Source: Candidatus Komeilibacteria bacterium
Lineage (GTDB): Bacteria > Patescibacteriota > Patescibacteriia > UBA1558 > GWA2-36-10
NCBI GenBank assembly: GCA_018656065.1
Contig: JABHZY010000015.1
Coordinates: 5,622 to 69,621, forward strand
Direction of reading: 5' to 3'
Length of the DNA: 64,000 nucleotides
In this document: one piece after another, positions 4,149 to 46,801 of the stretch
Position numbering within the stretch: the stretch's first letter is position 1
Layout of the letters: every line of letters starts with the position of its first letter
Notes under the pieces: model-generated
What the model saw: the letters and a program-made list of their open reading frames with translations, nothing else
Told to the model about the DNA's origin: nothing
Databases searched by the model: none
Program-made: the position numbers and the translations under genes

Positions 4149-4154
4149 GTATTT

Positions 4155-4163
4155 ATTTTAGCA
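4155..4163 (-). promoter_or_regulatory. Extended -10 promoter TGcTAAAAT placed 6 nt before the ATG (leaderless geometry)
   Basis: The minus strand reads TGCTAAAAT-AAATAC-ATG (ATG at 4146-4148). Confidence 0.4.
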
Positions 4164-4295
4164 CAAATTCTTCTCTTTGTACTTTTTTAGAAAAAGTACC
4201 AAAAATTTCTCGCTGCAGAAAAATCTAAATAATTTATTGCTTCTAGTCGCTTTTTTGTGAACTCGCCCTCGCTTCGCTCGAAGCTCAGACAGCAC

Positions 4296-4322
4296 AAAAA
4301 TAGCCCCGCCCAAGGGCGAGGC
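4296..4322 (-). terminator. Intrinsic terminator of the Fic gene
   Basis: GC-rich hairpin at 4303-4322 (GCCCCGCC / GGCGAGGC, one mismatch), followed on the minus strand by TATTTTTGTG. Confidence 0.5.
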
Positions 4323-4373
4323 AAGCGTGACTATACGCAGCTAAATTATAAGATTGTTTATGATGCGAGGGAT

Positions 4374-10701: not shown

Positions 10702-10796
10702 CCTCCTAAGATTTTTTTATTTTAGTTTTAACTAAGAAAAGTATAACATTTTTTCCTTTTTTATGCTAAGCTGAAGGTAGTTTTTAAATTAAAATT

Positions 10797-17357: not shown

Positions 17358-17396
17358 ATATTTTTTCTTTAATATTTATTATGTTTAATTTATTTT

Positions 17397-17454
17397 GTCA
17401 TTTCGACTGTAATGGAGAAATCTAGCTGGATCTCTCGACTACGCTCGAGATGAC
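17397..17454 (-). repeat. Family-A 58-bp quasi-palindromic GC-rich element, copy 1
   Basis: GTCATTTCGACTGTAATGGAGAAATCTAGCTGGATCTCTCGACTACGCTCGAGATGAC. Lies between the patatin stop and the peroxiredoxin start. Confidence 0.8.
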
Positions 17455-18994: not shown

Positions 18995-19027
18995 ATATTT
19001 TTATTTAGTTTATTATATTATTAATTT

Positions 19028-19084
19028 GTCATTTCGACCGCAGTGGAGAAATCTAGCAAGATCTCTCGACAAGCTCGAGATGAC
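19028..19084 (-). repeat. Family-A quasi-palindromic element, copy 2
   Basis: GTCATTTCGACCGCAGTGGAGAAATCTAGCAAGATCTCTCGACAAGCTCGAGATGAC. Lies between the nifU stop and the SOD start. Confidence 0.8.
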
Positions 19085-21395: not shown

Positions 21396-21440
21396 ATGGC
21401 CCAGGCCACCCTCTCTAGCCTTGCTATTCACCTTGTATTA
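21396..21440 (-). promoter_or_regulatory. Conserved 45-nt 5' UTR element, copy 2
   Basis: See 2606-2650. Here it heads the ferredoxin-nifS-nifU-SOD-patatin-prx gene string and follows a TATAAT. Confidence 0.45.
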
Positions 21441-22034: not shown

Positions 22035-22170
22035 AAATACAATCTAGGTGCCTCTCAATTAATACTTGAGATGAAAACAAAAATAAAAACAACCTGCCTC
22101 GACTTGACCCGCGTCGCTGCGAGGCATAAGTCGATTCAAGGTGGGAAAAGAACATTAAAAATTTAAAATT

Positions 22171-24665: not shown

Positions 24666-24677
24666 ATTATATATCCT

Positions 24678-24735
24678 GTCATCTCGAGCGTAGTCGAGAG
24701 ATCTTGATAGATTTCTCCGCTTCGGTCGAAATGAC
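24678..24735 (+). repeat. Family-A quasi-palindromic element, copy 3 (same orientation relative to transcription as copies 1-2)
   Basis: GTCATCTCGAGCGTAGTCGAGAGATCTTGATAGATTTCTCCGCTTCGGTCGAAATGAC. Lies between korA and korB. Confidence 0.8.
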
Positions 24736-33786: not shown

Positions 33787-33820
33787 CACCCGCCTAGACT
33801 CGAGTCCAGTCGGGGCTGGT
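33787..33820 (+). repeat. Family-F GC-rich element, copy 1 (CACCCGCCTAGACTCG-N11-GGCTGGT)
   Basis: The 16-nt and 7-nt blocks are identical to those at 39943-39976, while the centre differs. Confidence 0.6.
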
Positions 33821-33877: not shown

Positions 33878-33952
33878 GCTCCCATAGTTCAACGGATAGA
33901 ACAGCGGCCTTCTAAGCCGTAGATGTAGGTTCGATTCCTACTGGGGGTACCA
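33878..33952 (+). tRNA. tRNA-Arg (anticodon UCU), CCA encoded
   Basis: Hand-folded cloverleaf. Acceptor GCTCCCA/TGGGGGT (2 G-U pairs), D stem GTTC/GAAC, anticodon stem GCGGC/GCCGT, loop CTTCTAA, T arm GTAGG-TTCGATT-CCTAC. Confidence 0.85.
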
Positions 33953-33985: not shown

Positions 33986-34061
33986 GGTGCCCATGGTGTA
34001 ACGGTTAACACAGCGGCTTGTGGTGCCGCTAATGAGGGTTCGATTCCCTCTGGGCACCCCA
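33986..34061 (+). tRNA. tRNA-His (anticodon GUG) with encoded G-1 and CCA
   Basis: Acceptor GTGCCCA/TGGGCAC, with an extra 5' G opposite discriminator C. D stem GTGT/ACAC, anticodon loop TTGTGGT, T arm GAGGG-TTCGATT-CCCTC. Confidence 0.85.
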
Positions 34062-34108
34062 TCAAAGAATGAGCTAGTATTAGCTCGTTTTTTGTTTTGT
34101 GGTATAAT
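34062..34108 (+). repeat. Junction cassette J1 (abuts the tRNA-His CCA): TCAAAGAAT-GAGCTA-GTAT-TAGCTC-T-run-TGGTATAAT
   Basis: Hairpin at 34071-34086 and TATAAT at 34103-34108. The ATG follows 6 nt later (leaderless geometry). Confidence 0.75.
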
Positions 34109-34114
34109 TTATTT

Positions 34115-35107
34115 ATGGAAAATAACGAAATTTCTTTTATATGTGACGATTCTTTTTCTGAAAAAGAAAAAGATTATATTTATGAAAATATTCATAAGGC
34201 CGAGAAGCATATAGATTCTTTTTTAGGAAAACCAGAAAAAAATAAATGGACTATTTCTAGGTTTAAACATGGTCAATCTTACTATGAGACCGATTATAAT
34301 AAAAAAACTATATATTTGGGCAGGGATATATTTTTAGATGCTTTAATGCACGAGATTATTCACGCTTGGCATGGATTAAATCTGTCATATGATTTTATAG
34401 AGGAGGGCATAACATGCGTAGCCGTTAATAACTTGTCTAGTAAGTTAAATTTTATTGATAATAATTCTACTAATTTTTCTAAAAGTAATAATTTTTCTGA
34501 GCTTATTTGTTTTGATCCAGTTCAAGGCACCAAGTCTAATATTCATCTTTTAGATTTTTACAGAACAAGAATTATTTTTGATGTTTGGATGAAGTATGAA
34601 AAAAAGACCCCCGGATTAGTTTATAACATTATTAATGAATTAAAGAGATTAGGAAAACAAGAGGATGGTCTAAAGGTCTTTATGAAAATCATAAACAAGT
34701 ATAATAAAGATTTATTCAAAGAGTTTGATAATATTTTTTCAGTCAATTTAAGATTAATAAAAAGAAGTATTAAATTTAGTACTTCTTTGAATATTTTGGG
34801 TGGAGTAGTAGATTATGGAATTAACAAAGCTATTTTGTTTGTAGCAGTTAAAAAAGTATTATCACAGATCATATTGAAAAATAACAAGGTCTATCCAGGA
34901 TTAGTTGATCATATACTAAAATTACCCAATGATGAATTATTATTCACAATAGAGTCATTTGAATCAAAAAAAACTAAATTTAAAGTTAAAGTTCTAGAAG
35001 ATGGCACCTTTGGTTTTAAATATGATAATTTATCACCTGGTATATATAATATTTATGCTGAATCAAACGATGGAAAATTAAAAGATAAAATAATATTAAG
35101 TATATGA
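34115..35107 (+). CDS. Hypothetical HExxH protein (SprT-like zinc-peptidase motif LMHEIIHAWH)
   Basis: Start set at MENNEISF, because the track start at 34097 overlaps the promoter. There is no signal peptide. Confidence 0.55.
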   Translation: MENNEISFICDDSFSEKEKDYIYENIHKAEKHIDSFLGKPEKNKWTISRFKHGQSYYETDYNKKTIYLGRDIFLDALMHEIIHAWHGLNLSYDFIEEGITCVAVNNLSSKLNFIDNNSTNFSKSNNFSELICFDPVQGTKSNIHLLDFYRTRIIFDVWMKYEKKTPGLVYNIINELKRLGKQEDGLKVFMKIINKYNKDLFKEFDNIFSVNLRLIKRSIKFSTSLNILGGVVDYGINKAILFVAVKKVLSQIILKNNKVYPGLVDHILKLPNDELLFTIESFESKKTKFKVKVLEDGTFGFKYDNLSPGIYNIYAESNDGKLKDKIILSI

Positions 35108-35661
35108 AAATATTAGCAATTGCAGACAGGCCCCCTAAAAATTTAATTAAGACTACAGTTGTATCAGAAAAAATAGACATTATATGCACTTTGGGCGATT
35201 TAGATTTTTTTGACATAAAAGAACTAAAGGAAATTAATGATATCCCCAAAATAGGTGTATATGGAAATCATTGTTCAGGTAAATATTTTGAAAGTTTAGG
35301 CATTAAGAACCTGCATTTGACTACTTTTAAGTTTATGGGCTATACCTTCGGTGGTTTTGAGGGCTCTCTACGATATAAGCAGGGCAAACACATCATGTAT
35401 ACTCAAGCGGAGGCAGAAAGAAAACTTTTTAATTATGAATATGTTGATATAATGTTAGCTCATAGCCCACCATATGGAGTAAATGATGACATTAACGACA
35501 ATACACATACTGGCCTTATAGGGTTAAAAAGATATATAGAAGCCAAATGCCCAAAATTTTTTTTACATGGACATACATATCCATCAGATCCAAATAAAAT
35601 TGTTGAATTAGGCGACACCAAAATAATTTATGTTTATCAGGATAAAGTTATAAATTTATAA
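35104..35661 (+). CDS. Calcineurin-like metallophosphoesterase
   Basis: ILAIADRP, GDLD, GNHC and HGHTY motifs. ATGA overlap with the upstream gene. Confidence 0.7.
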   Translation: MKILAIADRPPKNLIKTTVVSEKIDIICTLGDLDFFDIKELKEINDIPKIGVYGNHCSGKYFESLGIKNLHLTTFKFMGYTFGGFEGSLRYKQGKHIMYTQAEAERKLFNYEYVDIMLAHSPPYGVNDDINDNTHTGLIGLKRYIEAKCPKFFLHGHTYPSDPNKIVELGDTKIIYVYQDKVINL

Positions 35662-35792
35662 AATCAGGATTCTCCATCAAAAAAGTTCTGAAAGTGTCCC
35701 ATAGGGCACCCCATTTGTCCTGAGCGAGAGTAACGAGTCGAAGGGTCAAAAAGTGAGCTAACCTTAGCTCGTTTTTTGTTTTGTGGTATACT
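35661..35792 (+). repeat. Composite junction J2: E-box + tRNA-His-like minihelix + GC-rich insert + GAGCTA-ACCT-TAGCTC terminator + TGGTATACT
   Basis: AAATCAGGATTCTCCATCAAAAAAGTTCTGAAA, then GTGTCCCATAGGGCACCCCA (35694-35713), TTGTCCTGAGCGAGAGTAACGAGTCGAAGGGT, a hairpin at 35755-35770 and the -10 at 35787-35792. Confidence 0.75.
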
Positions 35793-35822
35793 TAAGGTGT
35801 TATTAAAATTTAAATTAAATTT

Positions 35823-36062
35823 ATGAAAAAAGTTTTATTAGTAGTTATTATTTTAGGTGCAGGATATTATTTTTGGCAACAATTTCAAAATAATAAACTT
35901 CAAGTATGTCCTGATAGATGGACTGATAATCAAGAATTGCCAATCGTACCAGGCAAAGAAACACAATATTTTATAATTGATGGAGCTAGAAGGGAATTAG
36001 ATGAATTTGATTTAGATTGGGTAAAAGAAAATTGTGATATTGAACCTATTATAGTTCAATAA
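35823..36062 (+). CDS. Small secreted/anchored hypothetical protein
   Basis: 79 aa with an N-terminal hydrophobic helix MKKVLLVVIILGAGYYFW. Confidence 0.5.
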   Translation: MKKVLLVVIILGAGYYFWQQFQNNKLQVCPDRWTDNQELPIVPGKETQYFIIDGARRELDEFDLDWVKENCDIEPIIVQ

Positions 36063-36070
36063 AATTTATT

Positions 36071-36221
36071 TTATTCTCCACTAAAAAAGTTCTGAAAGTG
36101 TCCCACCCTTCGGCTTCGCTCAGGGTCTACGATAGGACCCCATTTGTCCTGAGCGAGAGTAACGAGTCGAAGGGTCAAAAAGTGAGCTAGCAATAGCTCG
36201 TTTTTTGTTTTGTGGTATAAT
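36071..36221 (+). repeat. Composite junction J3 (as J2, with an extra GC-rich insertion splitting the minihelix)
   Basis: TTATTCTCCACTAAAAAAGTTCTGAAAGTGTCCCA, then CCCTTCGGCTTCGCTCAGGGTCTACGA, TAGGACCCCAT, TTGTCCTGAGCGAG..., a hairpin at 36184-36199 (loop GCAA) and TATAAT at 36216-36221. Confidence 0.75.
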
Positions 36222-36248
36222 TAAAGTATTATTAAAATAGAAAAAATA

Positions 36249-37832
36249 ATGAGTAAAATAAAAAGTAAGGTAAAAATAAAAAGTGGATTAACTATAGATG
36301 TTAGATTAGCTTTGTCTATAATGATAGTATCTACTGCTATGCTAGCCTTTAATTTTGCAGCAGCAATGTTTTCTTTGCCAGATAAGGAAGTAGTAGTTAA
36401 ACAAAACATAAACCAAAAAATAACAGGTATCGTAGAGTTACTTACTACGGATGATTTTGAAAATAATATAGCAACATATTTATATAGTATTAATGTAGAT
36501 GGTGTGCGATATGATTTACAATCACCTGACAAGCAGTTAAGTGATTATGTTGGTAAAGAAGTCATTATAGATGGTTCAATCAAAAGTGATGTTATTATAG
36601 CAAATTCTATTCAAGATACTTTATCAAAGAATATCTATCCAGCTGTATTGGGGGAACAAAAATATGTGGTTGTATATTTACTTGATGGGACAGAAGACCC
36701 TAGTTTTGATGCACAAGCTTATACAAATTTACATTTTGAGGGAGCTAATGATTTTATTATCCAAGAATCTATGGGTGGGGCTAACATAAGTGCGTTAACA
36801 AAAACCGTATTCTTTACAACTCCTTTATGTTCGTCTTTCGATGTTAAAAATTATGCAATCGAAGCAATTGACGCAGAGGTTGATTTTAATCAGTATGATG
36901 GAATAATTATTTATTTACCATACAATAGTTGTCTTAATTATACGGCTGTAGGAAGTGTTGGTAAGTGGGAGGTTAGCACAGATGATGGTCTTTTACCACT
37001 ATATTATGTCATAATGAATGGATATAGTAGTTCTGTTGTACCATCAGCTGTGCTTGGACATGAGATAGGGCATAATTTTGGATTTGCTCATTCTGCAAGT
37101 TTAGAATGTGGAGAATTTCCATATAGGAAGCCATTGGATAGTGAGTGTTATTACTATTCCTATGGAGATAGGTTTAATATAATGGGTGGAGGAACATATA
37201 GTACCCACTACAGTCTTAGTAATAAATTGAAAGCTGGTTGGATTGCTGACAAAGAAGTTATTATTGCAAATTTAGGGACTTATGCCTTGGCTTCTATTGA
37301 AAATTCAGATGGCTTCATGCCGCGTGGTATAAAAATTCCTATTTTATGGGATGCAGAAGATATAAAAGCAATAGAGTTATATTATCAATCATATTATCTT
37401 TATTTAGCAGAATATGGAGTTACAGATTATTTTTTAGAATATTGGAGTGATATTGATATGAGTTGGTTTTCAGATGAGGTATTTGATTGTCCAGATAATA
37501 CTTATGGCTTAAGCCCCTCGGACGTAGAGAGAGGCTTATTAATAAGAGTGGGGGCAGATCCTGAATATAAACTTGATTTTAGTTTAACTATGCATCCCAA
37601 TACTGAGGTTTGTTGGGGTTCAGATATTCAAGATTCTTGTCGTCCTGATTCTTGTTTAAATATGGCCATGTTCTCTGAACCATTTAAGTTTCTTTTGGAA
37701 GGAGAGACTTATTATGATCAATTTAATAATATGAAAATAACTTTATTATCCGCTGGAGACGAAACGGCGACAGTAAAGATTTCTAGAATATATGATGATA
37801 TAGATGCATATGAGATATATGAAGATCTTTAG
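36249..37832 (+). CDS. Membrane-anchored/secreted metzincin-type zinc metalloprotease
   Basis: HEIGHNFGFAHS (HExxHxxGxxH). The N-terminus has a K-rich segment plus a TM helix. Confidence 0.65.
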   Translation: MSKIKSKVKIKSGLTIDVRLALSIMIVSTAMLAFNFAAAMFSLPDKEVVVKQNINQKITGIVELLTTDDFENNIATYLYSINVDGVRYDLQSPDKQLSDYVGKEVIIDGSIKSDVIIANSIQDTLSKNIYPAVLGEQKYVVVYLLDGTEDPSFDAQAYTNLHFEGANDFIIQESMGGANISALTKTVFFTTPLCSSFDVKNYAIEAIDAEVDFNQYDGIIIYLPYNSCLNYTAVGSVGKWEVSTDDGLLPLYYVIMNGYSSSVVPSAVLGHEIGHNFGFAHSASLECGEFPYRKPLDSECYYYSYGDRFNIMGGGTYSTHYSLSNKLKAGWIADKEVIIANLGTYALASIENSDGFMPRGIKIPILWDAEDIKAIELYYQSYYLYLAEYGVTDYFLEYWSDIDMSWFSDEVFDCPDNTYGLSPSDVERGLLIRVGADPEYKLDFSLTMHPNTEVCWGSDIQDSCRPDSCLNMAMFSEPFKFLLEGETYYDQFNNMKITLLSAGDETATVKISRIYDDIDAYEIYEDL

Positions 37833-37860
37833 TAAATGATAGAGCTTTTATATATAGTTA

Positions 37861-37999
37861 TAACCAAGGTCCGAATGGGACCCTCGCCCGCTATGCTAGT
37901 GCAAGCGTGGCGAGTGGGCCAGCAAAAAGTGAGCTAACATTAGCTCGTTTTTTGTTTGCTGTATTTTTTTATTATTTATTGTTAATATATAAGTATAAT
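37861..37999 (+). repeat. Composite junction J4 (different GC-rich inserts, GAGCTA-ACAT-TAGCTC terminator, relocated TATAAT)
   Basis: GGTCC-GAAT-GGGACC and CTCGCC...GGCGAG hairpins. Terminator at 37931-37946 and TATAAT at 37994-37999. Confidence 0.65.
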
Positions 38000-38015
38000 A
38001 ATTTATTATAATTAT

Positions 38016-38291
38016 ATGAGTAAATGGGAAAAAATTAAAAATCTTGTTACTAATAAGTCAACTAGTGAGCAAAAGGAAGAGATGCCAAAAGAGTTAAGAA
38101 CGGCATCTGAAATAACTGAAAGTGGCACGGGTGAATTAGAAGGACAAATAGATGAAAAAGTAGAGTCAGAAAAACAAGAAGCTGCAGATTTAGAACATAG
38201 AGAAAGAGTAAGAAGAAGAATCGCAGAAATAGCAGGCCCCCCTGGCAAACTTGAAACCATAGGAGAGGACTCTGAAGAAAAGGAGAAATAA
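38016..38291 (+). CDS. Acidic, probably disordered hypothetical protein
   Basis: 91-aa ORF in the same orientation as the junction promoters. The overlapping antisense ORF is rejected. Confidence 0.45.
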   Translation: MSKWEKIKNLVTNKSTSEQKEEMPKELRTASEITESGTGELEGQIDEKVESEKQEAADLEHRERVRRRIAEIAGPPGKLETIGEDSEEKEK

Positions 38292-38342
38292 ATAATCAAA
38301 GAATGAGCTAATGTTAGCTCGTTTTTTGTTTTGTGGTATAAT
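38292..38342 (+). repeat. Junction cassette J5 (TCAAAGAAT-GAGCTA-ATGT-TAGCTC-T-run-TGGTATAAT)
   Basis: The 15 nt TCAAAGAATGAGCTA are identical to J1. Hairpin at 38305-38320 and TATAAT at 38337-38342. Confidence 0.75.
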
Positions 38343-38366
38343 TAGAGTGTTATTAAAATTTAAATC

Positions 38367-39101
38367 ATGACAAGCACAACAAAGAAAATTTTATCTATTA
38401 TTATTATAGTTATTATTATTATTTTTGTACTAGTATTAACTATAGGCCTTGATAGTGATGCTGGAGGTTCTCCATTTATGACTCCGCTTTTGGGTTTTTT
38501 AATATTTAGTATACCATTGGTATTTGTGGCTTTAGTTTCTATTATTCAGCTGAAGAGGGGTAGGTCATTTTGGAAAGGTTTACTACAAGGAATAGTATTG
38601 TGTGTAGTGTTGAGCGCTTTACTTACAATGGGTATGAGAATTTATGAGGCTGTAGATTATAATAATAAGAGACAAGAGAGATTAGATGCAATGAGATCTT
38701 TTAATCAGACAGAGCATTATAAAAAAGATCAATTAAAAATTAGTCAAATTGAATTTAGATTATATACTGAATCTAATCAAACTGTAATCTCAGTTGGTGA
38801 TGGCTTTATTACTAATAATTTAAAAAGAGATACGCAAATTTTAGGTGAGAAATCATTTTCTGAATATATGGAATTAGTTCAAACAAGTGAATTTTTAGAT
38901 TTAGACGAGATATATAAAAATAAAACAAGTCCAGCCAACACCGAAGAGAATTTATATATTATTACTTTATTTTCTGGCAGTAAGTCTTTTAAGATAGTGA
39001 GGTGTTCTGGTGATTATAACGATTGTCCACTGGTCATGAGAAAAGTTATGGATAAAATTGAAAATGATTTAGGGGAAGATCTTTTTTCTGAAAATAATTA
39101 A
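38367..39101 (+). CDS. Hypothetical multi-TM membrane protein with soluble C-terminal domain
   Basis: 244 aa. Three or four N-terminal TM helices and no motif. Confidence 0.55.
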   Translation: MTSTTKKILSIIIIVIIIIFVLVLTIGLDSDAGGSPFMTPLLGFLIFSIPLVFVALVSIIQLKRGRSFWKGLLQGIVLCVVLSALLTMGMRIYEAVDYNNKRQERLDAMRSFNQTEHYKKDQLKISQIEFRLYTESNQTVISVGDGFITNNLKRDTQILGEKSFSEYMELVQTSEFLDLDEIYKNKTSPANTEENLYIITLFSGSKSFKIVRCSGDYNDCPLVMRKVMDKIENDLGEDLFSENN

Positions 39102-39110
39102 ATTAGGATT

Positions 39111-39317
39111 ATGAATCAAGAATTACAAAATTATATTAACGAAGAAAAAAATATAGGTACTGATGATGAGGCTATTAAACAGAAATTAAGAGACAGTGGA
39201 TGGGAAGATAAAATGTTTAACGAGTATTTTATTACGCCCACTAATCAACAAGAACCACACGCAGAGAATGGAGGAGAGTGGACTTATAGTTTAAATACTG
39301 ATGCACGTTGTAAGTAA
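39111..39317 (+). CDS. Hypothetical small protein
   Basis: 68-aa ORF, 9 nt after the previous gene. Confidence 0.4.
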   Translation: MNQELQNYINEEKNIGTDDEAIKQKLRDSGWEDKMFNEYFITPTNQQEPHAENGGEWTYSLNTDARCK

Positions 39318-39336
39318 TTAGATATTTAAGACTTTA

Positions 39337-39502
39337 AAATCAGGATTCTCCACCAAAAAAGTGCTCCGCCCGACATCGCCTAACGACGAAGTCGTTGGCG
39401 GACGGGTGAAAGTGTTCCACCCCCTCCCTCGGGGGTTATAATAGAGGATCCCAGTCAAAGAATTACCTCATATTGAAGTGGTTTTTTGTTTTGTGCTATA
39501 CT
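39337..39502 (+). repeat. Composite junction J6 (E-box, two GC-rich palindromic inserts, degenerate hairpin, TGCTATACT)
   Basis: AAAATCAGGATTCTCCACCAAAAAAGT, an insert with AACGAC-GAA-GTCGTT, then GAAAGTGTTCCA, CCCCC-TCCCTC-GGGGG, ...CCCAGTCAAAGAAT. The -10 is at 39497-39502. Confidence 0.65.
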
Positions 39503-39525
39503 GAAGATGTTATTAAAATAAAGTT

Positions 39526-39825
39526 ATGAAAGTCAGTAAAAAAGAATGGGTAAATAGAGGGTTATTGAGAGAAAAAGCCTATCAATCAATTAAAGAAAGT
39601 GAATTAAAAAAACTAGTAAAAGTTGGTTTAAAAAATAATAAACTTAAAAAATATTTACTAGATTATTTTAGTTACAGAGAATATGACTATACAGTTTGCT
39701 ATAACTGTTATAAGTCTATGGATAAAGATGAAAATATTTCTGCTAACGGATGGGGTTTGATAGTCAATTATTGTAATGAGTGTGGAGACGAAAGAATGGA
39801 TCAGATTAAATCCAAGAATTTTTAA
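39526..39825 (+). CDS. Small Cys4 zinc-ribbon-like hypothetical protein
   Basis: CYNCYKS...YCNECGD pairs. Confidence 0.45.
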   Translation: MKVSKKEWVNRGLLREKAYQSIKESELKKLVKVGLKNNKLKKYLLDYFSYREYDYTVCYNCYKSMDKDENISANGWGLIVNYCNECGDERMDQIKSKNF

Positions 39826-39942
39826 AATATATGAATCAATAAATAACGAAGAATCGTGGGAAATAGAAAGAATTGGAGATTATCAATAACTTAAAACATA
39901 AGTAAACATAGCCAGAGCTCCGAACTTATCCCTTAGGGGCCC

Positions 39943-40041
39943 CACCCGCCTAGACTCGCATTTATGCGAGGCTGGTCAAAAAGTGACCTATTCGACTTCG
40001 CTCAGGGTCATTTTTTGTTTTTGTAGCATATATGATATAAT
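39943..40041 (+). repeat. Composite junction J7 (family-F copy 2 + conserved-loop terminator + TGaTATAAT)
   Basis: CACCCGCCTAGACTCG...GGCTGGT, then CAAAAAGTGACCT-ATTCGACTTCGCTCA-GGGTCA, a T-run, and TATAAT at 40036-40041. Confidence 0.65.
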
Positions 40042-40078
40042 TATATCGTAATAATTTAATAATTTAATAAATAAAATT

Positions 40079-40753
40079 ATGGCAATAACAAACAATTTTG
40101 GCCAAGAAACTATCAATATTGGCCAAGAAATCACCGCCTCTTTATTAGGAGTAGTTTATACAATAATTGATTGGGTGCCTCGAGTTATTGGGGTTCTTAT
40201 TATCTTAATTATTGGGCATTATCTAGCTAAAGGAGTTAAGCAGCTTATAAAAAAGGTTTTAAAAACCATCAAATTTGAAGATTTTATGGTTAAGCTTAAA
40301 GTTACTGACATGATAAAATCTCAAGGAGTGTCTTTAACTATTAGTGATATCGCTGTTTGGTTAATTTATTGGCTAGTATTTTTAGCATTTATTAGTGCAG
40401 CAGCTGATGTATTAGCTGTGCCTAGTATTACAGAATTTATAGCAATGGTTATATCATATATTCCATCTATATTTGCTGGGCTGATCATTATTCTTTTAGG
40501 TATTATAGCTGCTAATACTTTAAGCTCCTTTGTTAAAAATTTTAAAGGCGGCGATACATATAAACAATTGGTTCGTTGGTTTATTTTAGTTATTGCTTTT
40601 ATAGCTGCCATAGAGCAACTAGGTTTAGACATTAGTTTTGTTACCAATAATTTATTTATTATTCTAGCTGGAGTAATGCTGGCCTTTGGTTTAGCTTTTG
40701 GACTTGGTGGGCGTGATAAAGCCAGAGAAATTATAGATAGACATATTAGATAA
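40079..40753 (+). CDS. Hypothetical membrane protein (repeated TM-helix modules)
   Basis: 224 aa with about 5 TM helices. Faint resemblance to conserved-TM-helix repeat proteins. Confidence 0.5.
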   Translation: MAITNNFGQETINIGQEITASLLGVVYTIIDWVPRVIGVLIILIIGHYLAKGVKQLIKKVLKTIKFEDFMVKLKVTDMIKSQGVSLTISDIAVWLIYWLVFLAFISAAADVLAVPSITEFIAMVISYIPSIFAGLIIILLGIIAANTLSSFVKNFKGGDTYKQLVRWFILVIAFIAAIEQLGLDISFVTNNLFIILAGVMLAFGLAFGLGGRDKAREIIDRHIR

Positions 40754-40770
40754 CCAATTTATAACTTATC

Positions 40771-40826
40771 AAAAAAACCATTCTATTCGGAATGGTTTTT
40801 TGTTTTGTTTAAAATGATGGTATAAT
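40771..40826 (+). repeat. Junction cassette J8 (AACCATTC...GAATGGTT subfamily + TGGTATAATAAATACAT)
   Basis: Hairpin at 40776-40797 and TATAAT at 40821-40826. Confidence 0.7.
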
Positions 40827-40859
40827 AAATACATTAAAATAAAGATATAAAAGATAATT

Positions 40860-41789
40860 ATGTTGAAAGCATATTTTAAAACGGCTCAAAGTAAAAGATT
40901 AAGAAAGATTAAAAAAATTCGAGAAGGCTCTTGGATAAATATTAATCACGCAGAGCATGATGATTTAGAGGCTATTACTAAATTAACTGATTTAAGCCTT
41001 TTAGATTTACAGGATACCCTAGATCTACAAGAATTGCCTCGTATTGAAAGACACAATAAGAGTATCATTTTATTTATTAGAACACCGATAGCAAAAAATA
41101 GCGGTCATCAATTTATTCATACCGTGCCATTAGCTATTATTATTAATAGTAAATATTTTATTACTATTTCTGCTGAGAAGAATAGTATAATAAAAGAGAT
41201 ACAAAAAAACAGCCTATCAATTGCTACCACCCAAAGAGGTAAAATGTTAGTTTATGTGCTTTTGAGAGTTTCTAAAAGTTTTACTAATAGAGTTAAAGAA
41301 ATTAGCTATGAAGTTTTATCCAAAAAGAAGCACATTGAAAATATTAAAAATTCTGATATTAGTGAATTGATTAAACATGAGGATGTTCTTAATCAGTATA
41401 TTTCAGCTTTAATACCTATGAGAACTTTATTTGAAAATTTAATGAGTAGTAGTTACTTAAAATTTTATAGAGAAGATCAAGATTTATTTGATGATATGTT
41501 AAATAGCATTCGACAATCAGTAGATATTTGTCAGGTTAATCTAAAAAGTATTAAAAGTTTGCGGGAATCTTATCAGATTGTTTTTACTAATCGTTTAAAT
41601 AAAGTTATTCAGTTTCTTACAGCCTTTACTATTGTTATGACTATTCCTACTATTATAGCTAGTCTTTATGGTATGAATGTTGAATTGCCTTTAGCGGGCA
41701 GTAAGTTTGCTTTTCTATATGTCTTGTTTTTTTCTTCATTTGGAATAGCGGCCTTTCTTTTCTTTTTTTATAAGAAAAAGTGGTTGTAA
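40860..41789 (+). CDS. corA: CorA-family magnesium/cobalt transporter
   Basis: YGMNV motif, followed by two C-terminal TM helices. Confidence 0.8.
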   Translation: MLKAYFKTAQSKRLRKIKKIREGSWININHAEHDDLEAITKLTDLSLLDLQDTLDLQELPRIERHNKSIILFIRTPIAKNSGHQFIHTVPLAIIINSKYFITISAEKNSIIKEIQKNSLSIATTQRGKMLVYVLLRVSKSFTNRVKEISYEVLSKKKHIENIKNSDISELIKHEDVLNQYISALIPMRTLFENLMSSSYLKFYREDQDLFDDMLNSIRQSVDICQVNLKSIKSLRESYQIVFTNRLNKVIQFLTAFTIVMTIPTIIASLYGMNVELPLAGSKFAFLYVLFFSSFGIAAFLFFFYKKKWL

Positions 41790-41790
41790 T

Positions 41791-41881
41791 TAGGATTTCC
41801 AATCAAAAAAGTTATTATAGTATTCTAAAGTTTTTATATTTTTAAAAAACCATTCCATTTGGAATGGTTTTTTGGTATAAT
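41791..41881 (+). repeat. Junction J9 (degenerate E-box TAGGATTTCCAATCAAAAAAGTT + AACCATTCC-ATTT-GGAATGGTT terminator + TGGTATAATAAATATAT)
   Basis: Hairpin at 41848-41869 and TATAAT at 41876-41881. Confidence 0.7.
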
Positions 41882-41907
41882 AAATATATAATATTTAAAT
41901 TTAAAAT

Positions 41908-43569
41908 ATGATTGAAGTAAAAACTAAAGTCAAAAATGCCTTAGGCATTAAAACTAAATTATCATTATTACTTATAGCGGCTACAGCCCTATCATTTAGT
42001 GTTACATCTTTTGCTATGCTGTCTGTTAATTTTGAAAAACTCAAAGCTAAAAAAAATGTCCCATCTAGTATTACAAAACAAGTTAGTAATGAGGTTTCAG
42101 GGCAGGTGAAAGATATATTGACAGGAGAAGCTCTATCTAATGTCACTGTAACTTTCACTAATTCAAATGATCCTGGTGAAATTTATAATACGGTTGTTGA
42201 CGCTGACGGTAATTATGAATTAGTTTTGGGTGCAGCTGGAGAGTATGATGTATATACAAATTATAATACAGTAGAATATTATGGTTATCAAGATTCTTAT
42301 TTACAAATAAATACATTCCCGTTTGTTTATAATGTAAATTTATTGCAATATGAAGATTATGACATGGAGGCTAATTGGGATTGTAGCAGTGAATTTAATA
42401 TTACACCAGGAGATTTTCCATTAATTACTTATATGGACAGATACTATGAATTACTTAATATTTATATTAATAATGGAACATTAACTCAAGCAGAATGGGA
42501 TGAATTAATAGCTCTTAAATGGGGCACTATTAATAGTATTAAATCTGAATTACAAATAATAAATAATGATATTAGTAATCAGCTGTATGTAGATGGTGAA
42601 TATGCCTCAATTCTTCTGGACAAAACTTTATGTAATTATCGTACAGAAATCGACTTTTATTATAGTTTAGATCATTCAGCGTGGCCACCAGTATATCCGA
42701 ATGAATTAAATCCTCATTCACATATTAGTACTAATTATTGGTACGATAATGACAATCGTAGTATTTTGAATACTATCAATGAAATAATAAAAGCTAATCC
42801 AAGTATTGTTGCACAAGAATTATTTGATAATCAAGCAATAGAAAAGATAGCGAGTATTTTGGACTGGCAAATAAAATTTAGTTCAGAAGGTGATAAAATA
42901 AAAGGTAGGCATCCTTGGACTTTTTGGGATGATTATGCAGAACATTTAAGATTAGATGATATGAGCTGGGTTCATCCATCTGACGCTATTTATCCTAATA
43001 CTCAACGCAGGTTGATGCTTTTTTATACAAATGGAATAGATGCTTTATTAAGTATGTTAGTAAATATAGCAGATAATAGTGATAAAGAATTATTAAATGA
43101 TTCATTGAAGAATAATGGTATATTTGCAAAAAATTATAAATTAATGACCTTACCTTCTATTACCGACGCCACAATGCCTGCCTATAGAGTACATGTAATA
43201 GGTCGAAATTTAGATCTTTTGAATATAATGTATCCCTATGTATTTAGAAATGAAAATGTTCAAGATATTGTAGCCTGGAACAATGAAAATAAAAATCAAA
43301 ATAGTCATTTCTGGACATATATAGCTACAGATAAAGTTTTTACGCATCATGATCAAGAGATGATAGAGATTTCAAATTTATTTAATAATTTTTGTACCAG
43401 CACTAGCACTACAGGATTAAATGGTGTTTGTTCACCTATAGAAAAACCATTATTTTGTGATAATGGAAATATTGTAAACAATTGTCAACGTTGCGGTTGT
43501 GTAAGTGGAGCAGAGTGTCATGACCGTGGTTATTGCTATATTGATGAAATACCCGCAATACATTTTTAA
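41908..43569 (+). CDS. Secreted/anchored protein with CarboxypepD_reg-like domain and Cys-rich C-terminus
   Basis: SGQVKDILTGEALSNVTVTF...DADGNYEL, and C-terminal CSPIEKPLFCDNGNIVNNCQRCGCVSGAECHDRGYCY. Confidence 0.55.
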   Translation: MIEVKTKVKNALGIKTKLSLLLIAATALSFSVTSFAMLSVNFEKLKAKKNVPSSITKQVSNEVSGQVKDILTGEALSNVTVTFTNSNDPGEIYNTVVDADGNYELVLGAAGEYDVYTNYNTVEYYGYQDSYLQINTFPFVYNVNLLQYEDYDMEANWDCSSEFNITPGDFPLITYMDRYYELLNIYINNGTLTQAEWDELIALKWGTINSIKSELQIINNDISNQLYVDGEYASILLDKTLCNYRTEIDFYYSLDHSAWPPVYPNELNPHSHISTNYWYDNDNRSILNTINEIIKANPSIVAQELFDNQAIEKIASILDWQIKFSSEGDKIKGRHPWTFWDDYAEHLRLDDMSWVHPSDAIYPNTQRRLMLFYTNGIDALLSMLVNIADNSDKELLNDSLKNNGIFAKNYKLMTLPSITDATMPAYRVHVIGRNLDLLNIMYPYVFRNENVQDIVAWNNENKNQNSHFWTYIATDKVFTHHDQEMIEISNLFNNFCTSTSTTGLNGVCSPIEKPLFCDNGNIVNNCQRCGCVSGAECHDRGYCYIDEIPAIHF

Positions 43570-43592
43570 TTAATTTTAAAATAAAGAATACT

Positions 43593-43631
43593 AAAAAAAC
43601 CATTCCACTGAGAGTGGTTTTTTGATATAAT
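43593..43631 (+). repeat. Junction cassette J10 (near-duplicate of J9)
   Basis: AAAAAAACCATTCCACTGAGAGTGGTTTTTTGATATAATAAATACAT. TATAAT at 43626-43631. Confidence 0.7.
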
Positions 43632-43657
43632 AAATACATAAGATTTAAATTTAAATT

Positions 43658-43921
43658 ATGAAAAAATTATTATTAATTTTAGCCATTCCTTTGTTAATGG
43701 GTGTAGGCTGTGTCAAAACAGAAACTTTAACCAATAAGGAGATTAATGAAGGCTTAGCTAGTGGTGAGCTCGCTTGTAACACAGCTAAACATTGCGCCGA
43801 TTTGGGCTTTGTCTGTGAAGATGAATTAAATTCTCCACGATGTTTAACGGATTATGATTTAGCTGGGCGTATAATTGAGTATCCTGTATGTATTTGTATT
43901 AATCCAAATTTAGATTATTAA
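43658..43921 (+). CDS. Small Cys-rich putative lipoprotein
   Basis: Signal peptide ending LMGVGC, with 7 further Cys. Confidence 0.5.
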   Translation: MKKLLLILAIPLLMGVGCVKTETLTNKEINEGLASGELACNTAKHCADLGFVCEDELNSPRCLTDYDLAGRIIEYPVCICINPNLDY

Positions 43922-43925
43922 AATA

Positions 43926-44363
43926 ATGAAAAAATTTTGCTGCAGTAACTATTTAAAAATAACTCAAGAAGCTTTTACGCTCGTTGAGTTATTGGTCGTT
44001 ATAGCAATAATTGGTATTTTATCTACAGCGGCAGTAGTTAATTTTAATACTACACGAGAAAAAGCTAAAGTTGCTGGAGCAAAGGCTTGGGGTTCAGCTC
44101 TTAAACCAGCAGTTATATTTTGTGATAGTCAAGGGTCTATTCTTACTGATCCAATGAACACGCCAACAGTTTATGGCGGTGGTGGTGCTCTTTGTATGCC
44201 AGATGTAGGCGTAGACTGGCCAACTGAAATGCCAGAAGGTTATAATCGTATAAATGTATTAAGTAATGGTCAGGGTTTGTGGGTTTTTGAAATTCGTACT
44301 TTTAATGTGACGCCTTTGTTACCAGAAGTTATTTGCAATAATTTTGAGGGTTGTGCTGGATAA
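43926..44363 (+). CDS. Type IV pilin-like protein (Ala at -1)
   Basis: QEA/FTLVELLVVIAIIGILS N-terminal methylation-type motif. Confidence 0.7.
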   Translation: MKKFCCSNYLKITQEAFTLVELLVVIAIIGILSTAAVVNFNTTREKAKVAGAKAWGSALKPAVIFCDSQGSILTDPMNTPTVYGGGGALCMPDVGVDWPTEMPEGYNRINVLSNGQGLWVFEIRTFNVTPLLPEVICNNFEGCAG

Positions 44364-44463
44364 AATAATAAATTAAATAATATTAATATAAAAATTAAAA
44401 GCCAAAATAAATGTTAATCGGTCATTTTTAACTGCTGAGCGATTTTTTATTTTGTTTATTTTA

Positions 44464-44472
44464 TGTTATAAT
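44464..44472 (+). promoter_or_regulatory. Extended -10 promoter TGtTATAAT of the repeat-protein gene
   Basis: TG at 44464-44465 and TATAAT at 44467-44472, preceded by TTTTTTATTTTGTTTATTTT. Confidence 0.45.
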
Positions 44473-44527
44473 AATTATATTATAGTATAAAAATTTTAAA
44501 ATATATTAAACACTCTAAAATTAAATT

Positions 44528-46801
44528 ATGAAAAAAGTTAAAACACAAACTAAGAGTCGTGTGGCAACTAAAGCTGGTGTATCAGTTGGACATAAGATAG
44601 CTCTTTCTATGTTGATTGCTTCAGCTTTTGCGTTGGGATTAAATTTTGCAGGCATGGCAATGCAATTGCCCAAAAAGCTAAAAGTCAAAAAAGTAAGAGT
44701 GAGTGCACCAACACCTCTTACAGTAAATATTACTAATGCGGCAATAAATGTTCCAATTTTTTATCCCGATGGATCCACAGCTTCATTTAGTAGCAGTGGC
44801 ATAGATCAGGGTAGCCTAGATATGGGGTCTAATAATTATTCTCATGCATCAGGTTCAGGTGGCGGTATATTACGAGGGCCATTAAAATTATCTTTGTCTC
44901 ATATGGAAGAAGGGCCTATTACTTTACCAGCTAGAATTATCAGATTAGAAGAGTTTGATATTAATGTATACAATCTTTGTGTACCAGAAACTACAGTATT
45001 TAATGAAGAATTAAATTATCCAGCTTCATATTATTATGATATCAATGGTACGCCGTATCATGATGTCAATCTTACACAAAGAGCTATTCCAGCACCATGT
45101 AACGTATTATTGGCCAATGCTTATGATCCAAGTGCTGTCACAGACGCCAAAGCAAATTTAGCTTTATCTGGATATTCAGAAGATGTTTACGCGGATTTTT
45201 ATTCTAATTTTAATAACTATCAGCAGAGTGCACACGGTCATCTTAATATTAGAAACAATACCTTTCAAAATTATAACACAACACATTTTCCAGGCGCGCC
45301 TTTGTCAATACTTTTATTTAATAATGAAGCTGACAATTTAACAGGATTTACTATACCATCTAGGATAGTAAAAGTCTTTAACTATGATCTAGAAAAAAAT
45401 CTTTGTCTTCCAGGAACAGTAATTTCTACATCTAGATATAGTCCGTCAATTTATTTCTACGATAACAACGGTACTCCATATTATGACTCTTTATTGACCG
45501 ACATGGCTACACCAGCTCCATGTAATCAACTCTTAGCTAATCGTTTTGAAACATATGATGGTATAAATGAAGCATTGATTAATTATATTGATTATGAGTT
45601 AGAATATGGTTCTCTATATTTTAATAATAATTTTGATGTCAATTTTAATGGTCAAGGAAATTTGTGGTTAGACTCTAATTACTATGACAATTATCCACCA
45701 ACAGTGTTGGGAGGACATTTAGAAGGTGCACCAATGGCCATTTCTATTTTACAAGATTCAAATAACGGAGCTATTTTAGCTCCTAGAGTTGTAAAGTTAA
45801 GCATGGATGATCAATCAGAGCATATAATTTGTGTACCAGAAACATATGTTCCTGGCGGCTCAGATTATCCAGAGATTAAAACTCCAGTATATTTTTATGA
45901 TAATAATGGCACCCCATATCACGATTCTTTATTGACTGATATGGCTACACCGGCTCCATGTAATCAACTTTTAGTAAATAAACTTGATGTTGGAATCAGT
46001 GATGTAAATGTTAATATCCCAGTTTGGAACCCTACTATTTCTTCAGCTGGATTCTTATATAATTTTGGTGCGCCAGATATGCATAAGGGCAACCTTAATT
46101 TACGTATGAGTCAATATGATCTTTTTACAGAATCAAATCAAGTAGGAGCACCTTTGGCCATAGAAGTGCTTCATGGCGAAGGTTCGAGTGCTATTGTGCC
46201 AGCTAGAGTATTGGTAATGCAAAGTTTTGACGGTGATTATTATACACTTTGTTTACCAGATTCTTTGATTAGGTCAGAGGAAAGAGAATTATATTTTTAT
46301 GACAATAATGGTACTCCATACTATGATTCGTTGATGACTGATATGGCAACTCCTAAAGCATGTAATCAATTATTAGCCAATGCTTTAGATATAGATCATG
46401 TATCTAATGCTAGTGTGGCTAGTACTCTTGATAGTCCGGATATAGCGGAAGTTCATTTTATACAAAATGGAGCACCAATTGGGAGTTTAGATTTAAATAC
46501 AAATATTTTTGATGAAAATGAATGGGGCAGTAATGATTTATTTATAAATCCATTGGTAATATTTTTGACTCATGGCGAAGAGGGAGATCAAAGATTCCCA
46601 AATATGAGACTTGGCGTTGAATCAGGTGATTCTAGATATTCTCTTTGTGTACCACCCTCTTTGGTAACAGACTATACTCATACAGGGCCGATTCATTATT
46701 TCTATGATAGTGAAGGTAATCCGTATAGAGATAGTATATTAACTCAAAGAATTACTTGTCCACCAATAAACACTCATTATAATATACAAGAATTGCCTTA
46801 A
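44528..46801 (+). CDS. 757-aa secreted/anchored protein built from five tandem ~135-145-aa repeats
   Basis: The motif [LC.P]...YFYDNNGTPY[YH]DSLLTDMATPAPCNQLLAN recurs at about nt 45030, 45463, 45889, 46291 and 46693. The N-terminus has a K-rich segment plus a TM helix. Confidence 0.7.
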   Translation: MKKVKTQTKSRVATKAGVSVGHKIALSMLIASAFALGLNFAGMAMQLPKKLKVKKVRVSAPTPLTVNITNAAINVPIFYPDGSTASFSSSGIDQGSLDMGSNNYSHASGSGGGILRGPLKLSLSHMEEGPITLPARIIRLEEFDINVYNLCVPETTVFNEELNYPASYYYDINGTPYHDVNLTQRAIPAPCNVLLANAYDPSAVTDAKANLALSGYSEDVYADFYSNFNNYQQSAHGHLNIRNNTFQNYNTTHFPGAPLSILLFNNEADNLTGFTIPSRIVKVFNYDLEKNLCLPGTVISTSRYSPSIYFYDNNGTPYYDSLLTDMATPAPCNQLLANRFETYDGINEALINYIDYELEYGSLYFNNNFDVNFNGQGNLWLDSNYYDNYPPTVLGGHLEGAPMAISILQDSNNGAILAPRVVKLSMDDQSEHIICVPETYVPGGSDYPEIKTPVYFYDNNGTPYHDSLLTDMATPAPCNQLLVNKLDVGISDVNVNIPVWNPTISSAGFLYNFGAPDMHKGNLNLRMSQYDLFTESNQVGAPLAIEVLHGEGSSAIVPARVLVMQSFDGDYYTLCLPDSLIRSEERELYFYDNNGTPYYDSLMTDMATPKACNQLLANALDIDHVSNASVASTLDSPDIAEVHFIQNGAPIGSLDLNTNIFDENEWGSNDLFINPLVIFLTHGEEGDQRFPNMRLGVESGDSRYSLCVPPSLVTDYTHTGPIHYFYDSEGNPYRDSILTQRITCPPINTHYNIQELP

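Follow-up and report, generated by a model that had tools for sequence, protein, structure and literature searches.

Why do the gene junctions that follow a tRNA-His gene carry what look like worn copies of the end of that same tRNA? The question is raised by a stretch of 64,000 nucleotides (nt) from Candidatus Komeilibacteria bacterium (hereafter the window), which is AT-rich (about 32% GC) and is most closely related, among public sequences, to Parcubacteria metagenome bins such as L019, "Candidatus Parcubacteria bacterium SI039_bin36". On the 3' side of its tRNA-His gene lies a series of small genes on the plus strand, most of which could not be annotated, and the repeated junction modules between them are restricted to 34-42 kb of the window. 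A sequence-only reading had noticed in one junction a short hairpin whose 3' half is identical to the tRNA-His end, and had proposed two explanations: attachment-site (att)-like scars of repeated integration into tRNA-His, or functional tRNA-like signals that punctuate transcripts. Our analysis supports the first. The remnants are probably att-site left arms that derive from mobile elements which carry a gene for a large serine recombinase (LSR) and insert at the 3' end of tRNA-His. We read them in this way because left and right arms occur in four pairings that switch at one point, and because the left arm of the second junction (J2) is 92% identical to the end of an LSR element.

tRNA-His-like remnants in the window

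Two tRNA genes precede the array, and the second ends with the bases GGGCACCCCA (34052-34061):

33878-33952, plus strand: tRNA-Arg (ARAGORN)
33987..34061, plus strand: tRNA-His (GTG), with the CCA encoded (ARAGORN; Rfam tRNA model, 64 bits)

The J2 remnant, GTGTCCCATAGGGCACCCCA, occupies 35694-35713 as described, and folds into the 6-bp hairpin that had been claimed for it (-8.0 kcal/mol). The 11-mer that it shares with tRNA-His, GGGCACCCCAT, occurs only twice in the 64 kb, at 34052-34062 (the tRNA-His 3' end plus one base) and at 35704-35714. When up to one mismatch is allowed, there are 3 matches against 0.27 expected, a number that none of 100 shuffles reached. The match is real and not a stray 11-mer, because the homology of the module that follows (CAAAGAAT-terminator-promoter) is colinear with it and because it recurs in relatives; the shuffles and this recurrence rule out a chance match as the source of the identity.

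Further pieces were found where they had been placed, namely the two halves in J6 (GTGTTCCA at 39412-39419 and GGATCCCAGTCAAAGAAT at 39446-39463) and the 32-nt GC-rich insert TTGTCCTGAGCGAGAGTAACGAGTCGAAGGGT, with identical copies at 35715-35746 and 36144-36175. Both halves are also present in J3, separated by a 27-nt GC-rich insert, with TAGGACCCCAT at 36133-36143 as claimed and GTGTCCCA at 36098-36105 rather than 36097-36104. Degenerate remnants occur in J3, J4, J6 and J7, of which J4 (GGTCCGAATGGGACCC, 37856-37883) and J7 (39917-39944) were absent from the earlier list; J5 has no remnant. The claim that junctions carry degenerate copies of the acceptor end thus holds for the sequence of J2, J3, J4, J6 and J7, and is not confirmed for the minihelix, which does not generalise in an alignment of 17 arms (see below).

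Serine recombinase elements and the exchange of arms

Relatives were found by a metagenome scan with the left-part motif, a genome scan with a neighbouring motif, and homologs of a 553-residue protein encoded in the window (41908-43569). The pattern scans returned few true relatives (L011, L015, L019); the matches L012-L014, L016-L018, L020 and L021 were discarded as chance. One contig, L009, carries the window's left flank at 99.9% identity and, after ..GGGCACCCCAT, switches to AAGAACTCCTTCCTTTTGGAAGG.., a sequence that also follows a junction remnant in L011 and carries a convergent LSR gene of 514 codons. The LSR at 1866-3410 of L011 matches the Resolvase (1.4e-20), Recombinase (4e-16) and Zn_ribbon_recom (4e-9) domains.

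The longest view of such elements comes from L040, a contig of 167 kb whose arrangement is replicated in L041-L043. In window orientation it reads RpiB, tRNA-Arg, a GIY-YIG gene and a tRNA-His identical to that of the window, immediately followed by a first LSR gene (LSR#1). The L040 LSR, related to that of L011, matches the PHROG integrase phrog_95 at 5e-73 as well as the TP901-1 and A118 integrase structures. Element 1 continues with genes of 50, 187 (DnaD-like) and 267 residues, a methylase, a 302-residue gene, MazG and a 202-residue gene, and closes with the arm ..GTTCTGAAAGTACCCCATAAGGGACCCCAT, after which come a second LSR gene and its element. The two LSR genes are at 10001-11518 (LSR#1) and 3209-4753 (LSR#2) of L040. 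Two LSR elements therefore stand in tandem (tRNA-His/element 1/element 2). Contig L011 is 100% identical to L040 in their overlap and extends through element 2 to TTCCATAATGGGGTCCTAT/CAAAAAACGAGCC.., where further small cassettes follow. The sequence-only reading had suggested looking for an element whose attP contains the motif, and the outcome was positive: the far end of element 1, ..GTTCTGAAAGTACCCCATAAGGGACCCCAT, is 92% identical to the J2 left arm over 50 nt (L011 1877-1926).

The same position of the recombinase recurs across lineages. The LSR gene is convergent with the tRNA-His 3' end in L040/L041/L043 (33-nt overlap), L045 (LSR 59% identical) and L046/L047 (56%), and with the tRNA-Asn 3' end in the more distant L048-L050 (52%). 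In every lineage examined the LSR open reading frame (ORF) ends inside the tRNA (L040 11486-11518; L045 2566-2577; L046 3610-3621; L048 5475-5515). These ORFs cross the recombination point, and the last 4-14 recombinase codons therefore depend on where the element is located. An LSR gene stands beside the att site in L011/L040 (two LSRs), L044, L045, L046/L047 and L048-L050, and the clade is large in genomes of the candidate phyla radiation (CPR), with 3269 homologs at E<1e-20.

We anchored 19 junctions on the final base of CCCA(T/G/C) and compared their arms, which combine as follows:

Left arm tRNA-His, right arm CAAAGAAT-terminator-promoter: window, L038, L037
Left arm tRNA-His, right arm AAGAAC-hairpin-LSR: L040, L045, L009
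Left arm remnant, right arm AAGAAC-hairpin-LSR: L040, L044, L011
Left arm remnant, right arm CAAAGAAT-terminator-promoter: window J6, L019, L037

All four arm pairings (B/B', B/P', P/P' and P/B') are present, and in the 19 aligned junctions the switch falls immediately after CCCA(T/G/C). Such a set of four combinations, all switching at the same base, is what characterises site-specific exchange at a single point. The block of identity with the local tRNA-His is 3-10 nt long and ends at CCCA, or is 11-13 nt long with the following bases, and there are no long direct repeats. There are two apparent pairs of empty and occupied sites in one genetic background: the window tRNA-His end (empty) and L009 (occupied), and L056 (empty, with an L040-type left flank and a window cassette) and L040 (occupied).

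The intergenic gaps of the window are built in the same modular way. After the stop codon come ..GGATTCTCCAYCAAAAAAGTTCTGAAAGT, the remnant RYCCCATAGRGGAYCCCA(T/G), the right part and the next ATG; the right part consists of (T)CAAAGAAT, a hairpin and a T-run fused to TGnTATAMT, followed by GTTATTAAAAT. The individual features are:

34063..34108, plus strand: right arm of J1, with CAAAGAAT, hairpin GAGCTAGTATTAGCTC and T-run (bidirectional intrinsic terminator), joined to an extended -10 motif, TGnTATAAT
35662..35714, plus strand: left arm of J2 (putative P-type att arm), AATCAGGATTCTCCATCAAAAAAGTTCTGAAAGTGTCCCATAGGGCACCCCAT, with the hairpin at 35694-35709 and the 11-mer at 35704-35714
35715..35746, plus strand: 32-nt GC-rich insert between the CCCCAT core and the right arm of J2
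35747..35792, plus strand: right arm of J2, with CAAAAAGT, terminator hairpin, T-run and TGGTATACT (repeat families, terminator scan)
36073..36143, plus strand: left arm of J3, in pieces 36073-36105 and 36133-36143 (TAGGACCCCAT)
36144..36221, plus strand: the 32-nt insert again (36144-36175), followed by the right arm of J3 (36176-36221)
37856..37954, plus strand: J4, with type-2 left arm AGTTATAACCAAGGTCCGAATGGGACCC (37856-37883), 36-nt GC-rich insert (37884-37919), and CAG plus right arm (37920-37954)
38296..38342, plus strand: J5, right arm alone (TCAAAGAAT, terminator, promoter), abutted by the stop codon, without left-arm remnant
39338..39502, plus strand: J6, with left-arm pieces 39338-39365, 39408-39419 and 39442-39454 (TAGAGGATCCCAG) and right arm 39455-39502
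39917..40023, plus strand: J7, with degenerate left arm GCTCCGAACTTATCCCTTAGGGGCCCCA (39917-39944), 31-nt insert (39945-39975) and right arm 39976-40023
41788..41813, plus strand: J9, outer part of the left arm only (AATTAGGATTTCCAATCAAAAAAGTT), CCCA core lost (repeat family D7)

The right arm of J1 forms a 14-pair stem at 34063-34094 in the terminator scan and belongs to repeat families D3/D4, with other copies at 35746, 36175, 37919 and 38293. Several left arms have counterparts in relatives. The 27-nt hairpin insert of J3 (36106-36132) splits the arm within the CCCA^TAG loop, an architecture shared by junction Ji of L019 (insert plus TCTACGAT). Homologues of J4 are Ja of L019, L038 8340-8372 (GTTATAACCAAGGTCCGTAAGGGACCCCAG) and IG9615 of L037; the J6 arm, whose pieces are parted by GC-rich inserts at 39366-39407 and 39420-39441, is homologous to Jd of L019 (..ATAGAGGATCCCAGTCAAAGAAT); and the J7 arm aligns with Jf and Je of L019. 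The 32-nt insert, both copies of which lie exactly between the CCCCAT core and the right arm and would thus split the att-like site, is missing from the insert-free junctions of L019. Since J2, J3, J4 and J7 are split at or near the core by GC-rich inserts, their sites would be inactive, which fits a fossil array. As a separate observation, the outer segment of the left arm, GGATTCTCCAY/CAAAAAAGT (35662-35693 in the window, and in homologous arms), resembles another, more degenerate copy of the remnant plus CAAAGAAT (compare GAGGATCCCAG/TCAAAGAAT), which suggests nested or stuttered att cores.

A mechanism can be proposed from these relationships. The attB site would comprise the tRNA-His 3' end (..GGGCACCCCA) and the bidirectional terminator that follows it (CAAAGAAT-hairpin-T-run), and would be used by integrative elements of about 7-8 kb that carry an LSR, a DnaD-like loader, C5 methylases, MazG and HNH. 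In such an element the LSR gene would lie proximal to the tRNA and convergent with it, its ORF running over the junction, and the far end would read ..GGATTCTCCAYCAAAAAAGTTCTGAAAGT-RYCCCATARGGRACCCCAT. Recombination would swap the left and right flanks of the CCCA(T) core, so that integration joins the element arm to the host-type CAAAGAAT-terminator-promoter arm, which is what J2, J3, J4, J6 and J7 look like. The predicted P/P' site is GGGACCCCAT/AAGAACTCCTTCC.., and the candidate attP is GTTCTGAAAGTACCCCATAAGGGACCCCAT/AAGAACTCCTTCC(T/C)TTTGGAAGGTG. We infer that the LSR is the catalyst of the arm exchange, that the crossover lies inside the block of 6-13 identical nt that ends with CCCA(T), and that the window array was built by repeated integration and decay.

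The window itself would thus represent an unoccupied attB (tRNA-His/J1), of which GGGCACCCCA is most likely the left arm, followed by accreted units of one or two genes that lack a recombinase. Each unit would bring its own terminator/promoter arm and be closed by a left arm, with several of the sites now split by GC-rich mini-inserts. The recombinase-less units, such as 34063-35714 and 35747-36143, are bounded by arms homologous to those of LSR elements, and Pfam scans of their ORFs and tblastn with the LSR found no recombinase inside the units of the window array. Three of ten RpiB-bearing contigs stop inside or just past tRNA-His (L002, L003 and L006, ending at window 34152, 34040 and 34050). 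Such ends would fit a branching assembly graph, due to population heterogeneity or repeats at the att site.

How far the remnants match the local tRNA-His varies between genomes. Where tRNA-His ends with GGCACCCCA, remnants that match the local gene over at least 9 nt number 1 of 5 in the window, 1 of 4 in L040/L011 and 4 of 7 in L037, and the L037 match includes a species-specific base (AGGCAC, compared with GGGCAC in the window). None of nine remnants reaches 9 nt in the species of L019 and L038, whose tRNA-His is a different gene ending with ATCACCCCA. Other remnants read GGGAC or GAGGAC followed by CCCA. The remnants therefore seem to derive in part from the tRNA, and the GGGCAC copies may be either host ends that were displaced or arms of the element that follow the host sequence. 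The earlier proposal of att-like scars at tRNA-His is thus supported, both by the remnants as left arms and by the relatives' LSR encoded against the tRNA-His 3' end. It needs one amendment, in that many of the remnants may belong to the element, as P arms similar to the tRNA end, instead of being host tRNA fragments that were displaced.

The genes between the junctions differ between species far more than the junctions do. In contig L019, about nine single-gene units, separated by junctions built like those of the window, form an array of 8 kb. Contigs L038/L039, from the same species as L019, read HisK-Rpe-RpiB-127aa-tRNA-Arg-tRNA-His and then enter the array, and L037 has the left flank of L038/L039 with wholly different cargo. 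HisK-Rpe-RpiB-tRNA-Arg-tRNA-His is common to the three syntenic species (window, L038 with L019, and L037). All-against-all BLASTP of the array proteins found only the 553-residue gene and one weak pair in common between species, and beyond these no homologous cassettes at other array positions. By contrast, the junction modules are 75-90% identical between the three species. With conserved modules around differing cargo, the region 3' of tRNA-His is a hot spot of gene content with conserved punctuation.

Weighing the explanations

Several observations weigh against att sites left by LSR elements. There is no LSR gene in the window, where tblastn detects only the junction-encoded tail, nor in the 8 kb past its end; the sole recombinase beyond that end is a tyrosine recombinase of 270 residues, about 6.4 kb away. 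No excised circle (attP) was found in protein-guided and attP-pattern scans of viral contigs, in which all 26 pattern matches were unrelated coding sequence. Contigs L009 and L056 are exactly what chimeric assembly across the shared 77-nt tRNA-His would produce, and they could be such chimeras. Look-ups with the window proteins showed, apart from L009 and L056, the same cassette order throughout, in about 20 independent contigs of the window's species, and this constancy gives no sign of current cassette mobility. The hairpin of some arms is left unexplained by an att-site model. Finally, canonical LSRs recombine attP with attB and not hybrid sites, so that tandem P/P' junctions need relaxed specificity or another route. 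A more far-reaching version is a tentative possibility that we would not favour: the tRNA-His locus may be an integron-like, LSR-driven capture platform, in which LSRs of co-resident elements act in trans to capture and stack recombinase-less single-gene cassettes, and possibly to excise them, the att arms double as terminator and promoter, and the tRNA 3' end is the primary site with the junctions as secondary ones.

We think it rather unlikely that the modules are primarily regulatory, each combining a 3' untranslated region (UTR) motif, a bidirectional terminator and an extended -10 promoter, and that they spread by local duplication or gene conversion, with LSR elements mimicking and targeting them. 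The right arm does score as a long and strong bidirectional terminator, the region holds 24 terminator-like sites against 4.0 +/- 1.8 expected, and the TGnTATAAT motif of the right arm precedes every gene. The order of the array is stable in the population, and family-B modules (J8-J10, family D6) are alike without any remnant. However, a regulatory origin leaves unexplained the reassortment of arms at one nucleotide, the coincidence of the left arm with the terminus of an LSR element, and the clustering 3' of tRNA-His. Hardly credible, in our view, is an array of the integron type, in which a tyrosine integron integrase would act on the hairpins as attC-like sites of folded single-stranded DNA. 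Small genes on the same strand, each followed by an imperfect palindrome of variable length, do invite the comparison, and GC-rich inserts at the apex of the hairpins are reminiscent of attC with its variable terminal structure. Yet Pfam scans of the ORFs at 26.6-47 kb found no IntI-like gene near the array, J1-J7 contain no GTTRRRY, the lone RYYYAAC lies inside a GC-rich insert, and no junction has a RYYYAAC/GTTRRRY core pair. Each unit has its own promoter-like motif and terminator, the hairpins are just 4-6 bp long and not conserved, and the recombinase tied to these sites in relatives is a serine recombinase.

The second proposal of the sequence-only reading, that the remnants are functional tRNA-like minihelices in 3' UTRs, recognised by RNase P, RNase Z or the CCA-adding enzyme, which punctuate or stabilise the cassette transcripts, appears quite improbable and found no support in a comparison of the copies. 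Hairpins of 5-6 bp followed by CCCA are formed by J2, J4, L038-J and L019-Ja, their stems differ between copies (GTGTCC/GGGCAC, GTCCCC/GGGGAC, GGTCC/GGACC, CTCC/GGAG), and the remnants lie upstream of each terminator and would hence be transcribed. The fold of J2 has a z-score of -1.7 against dinucleotide shuffles and -2.8 against mononucleotide shuffles. However, among 23 arms that we folded about nine have no stable hairpin, and the mean z-score is -0.9. When we aligned 17 homologous junction arms from 5 genome types, 64.7% of the cells were paired, a value equalled by 104 of 500 shuffles, and the covariation score was equalled by 93 of 500. ARAGORN reports just the two real tRNAs, and across 34063-44600 Rfam gives no tRNA match even at E<=10; no other Rfam family matches the remnants, either at the gathering threshold or at E<=10. 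In L019 and L038 the remnants are unlike the local tRNA-His acceptor stem, GTGGTAG/CTATCAC. A conserved minihelix is therefore not supported: what is conserved is the primary sequence ..GGRNCCCCA(T/G) and not a structure, and the J2 hairpin belongs to some copies rather than to the whole family. The left arm resembles the core repeated two or three times in tandem, in degenerate form (TCTCCAY/CAAAAAAGT, ACCCCAT/AAGG, GGGACCCCAT/), and such copies create CCCC/GGGG complementarity on their own. A possible outer stem, GUUCU/AGAAU, surrounds the hairpin, but the A-tract of a bidirectional terminator is a better explanation of the CAAAGAA tract.

Known systems and further observations

The att sites of known LSRs (phiC31, Bxb1, TP901-1, A118 and SCCmec CcrAB) are similar to those proposed here in the recombinase itself (Resolvase, Recombinase and zinc-ribbon domains), in the recombinase gene at one element end next to the att site, in the short identity between partner sites and in the exchange of arms at one point. 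They differ in the target, which here is a tRNA gene 3' end with its terminator, in that the LSR ORF crosses the crossover point, and in the persistence of hybrid or repeated att-like sites in long arrays. The usual targets of serine integrases are protein-coding genes or intergenic sites, and integration at tRNA genes is typical of the tyrosine integrases. A literature search found no description of this system or of a serine integrase at a tRNA 3' end plus terminator.

Accretion at tRNA genes and cis-mobilisable elements (CIMEs) are exemplified by the CIMEs of Streptococcus ICESt1/ICESt3, tRNA-anchored genomic islands and Prochlorococcus tycheposons. As read here, the locus shares with CIMEs and tRNA islands repeated integration at one tRNA 3' end, att-bounded arrays with many units that lack a recombinase, and autonomous elements in tandem at the site (in L040, tRNA-His/element 1/element 2/cassettes). 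There the integrases are of the tyrosine class and a longer piece of the tRNA 3' end is duplicated at every event, whereas the units here are mostly single genes of 0.3-1.7 kb with an att arm that doubles as terminator and promoter. Integrons (IntI, attI, attC) likewise have small cassettes on the same strand with unrelated functions, imperfect-palindrome ends and a fixed primary site adjacent to them; here there are no IntI and no attC cores, the recombinase is of the serine class, and the cassettes have their own promoters and terminators. Among tRNA-like processing elements, which include plant mitochondrial t-elements, mascRNA and the mitochondrial tRNA punctuation model, t-elements and mascRNA resemble those copies that combine an acceptor-like hairpin with CCA 3' of an ORF, and differ by the lack here of a conserved structure and of a tRNA-model signal.

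By analogy, the system appears to join the workings of a serine-integrase element to the tandem accretion known from tRNA genes. It departs from the known kinds in the class of recombinase at a tRNA target, in the LSR ORF that runs over the att site, and in the single-gene units whose att arms are terminator and promoter. An odd 11-mer thus leads to a testable system, a large CPR clade of serine integrases that appears to target tRNA 3' ends, and metagenomes give direct access to its natural attB, attL and attP-like sequences. It also offers a candidate mechanism for a highly variable gene region in otherwise very reduced genomes. Serine integrases are sought for genome engineering, a field to which a family that combines many natural pseudo-sites with a short, conserved target based on a tRNA would be of interest. 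If the cassettes were mobile, they would represent a second, mechanistically unrelated route to integron-like gene capture.

Further observations concern the genes around the array. In a more distant genome (L036 6313-8302) the 553-residue CarboxypepD_reg-like gene and its 87-residue neighbour lie between rpsP/KH and trmD, and this location outside the tRNA-His array indicates that the gene pair itself moved. A gene for a GIY-YIG nuclease of 90-101 residues, bracketed by CACGTGG-type inverted repeats, stands between tRNA-Arg and tRNA-His in L037 (4538-4813), L040 (11629-11901) and L056 (367-672), and is not present in the window. A second terminator-promoter family, AAAAAACCATTCC-loop-GGAATGGTTTTTTG..TATAAT, occurs without tRNA-like remnant at 40772-40839, 41844-41911 and 43594-43661, where it punctuates genes for MscS-like, CorA and the 553-residue protein. 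The window also encodes an ORF of 757 residues (44528-46801) with no Pfam domain found, in which a repeat of about 420 nt is present four times, the copies being 63-73% identical (family D1).

Many junctions are interrupted by GC-rich hairpin inserts of 22-42 nt. The J7 insert belongs to the CCCGCCTAGACTCG..GGCTGG family (repeat family D12). Mini-inserts of the form CCCGCCTAGACTCG-loop-CGAGGCTGG occur in the window at 33787-33820, 39945-39975 and 22091-22124, in L037 at IG6903 and IG14153, and in L045 at about 2870-2910. They are placed after CA and before T, including exactly at the att core, and L038 has an unbroken TTTTAGCATATATTG where the window holds a mini-insert; their placement suggests very small mobile hairpin elements that target CA^T. 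The segment 36106-36127 is related to the 32-nt insert in inverted orientation and could pair with its second copy in a predicted long stem (z-score -4.9). GC-rich repeats are also found elsewhere in the window (17390-17439, 19021-19070 and 24671-24720; 2606-2645 and 21396-21435), in the families GTCATTTCGAC..GGAGAAATCT and ATGGCCCAGGCCA..CTCTCT, the latter related to inserts in 5' UTRs of L038 and in junction Ji of L019. Finally, 5' fragments of tRNA-Arg (for example, GCCCCCA..TAGTTCAACGGA) with GC-rich interruptions lie just upstream of the intact tRNA-Arg in L037 (about 4280-4360), L040 (about 12150-12210) and L045 (about 2860-2910).

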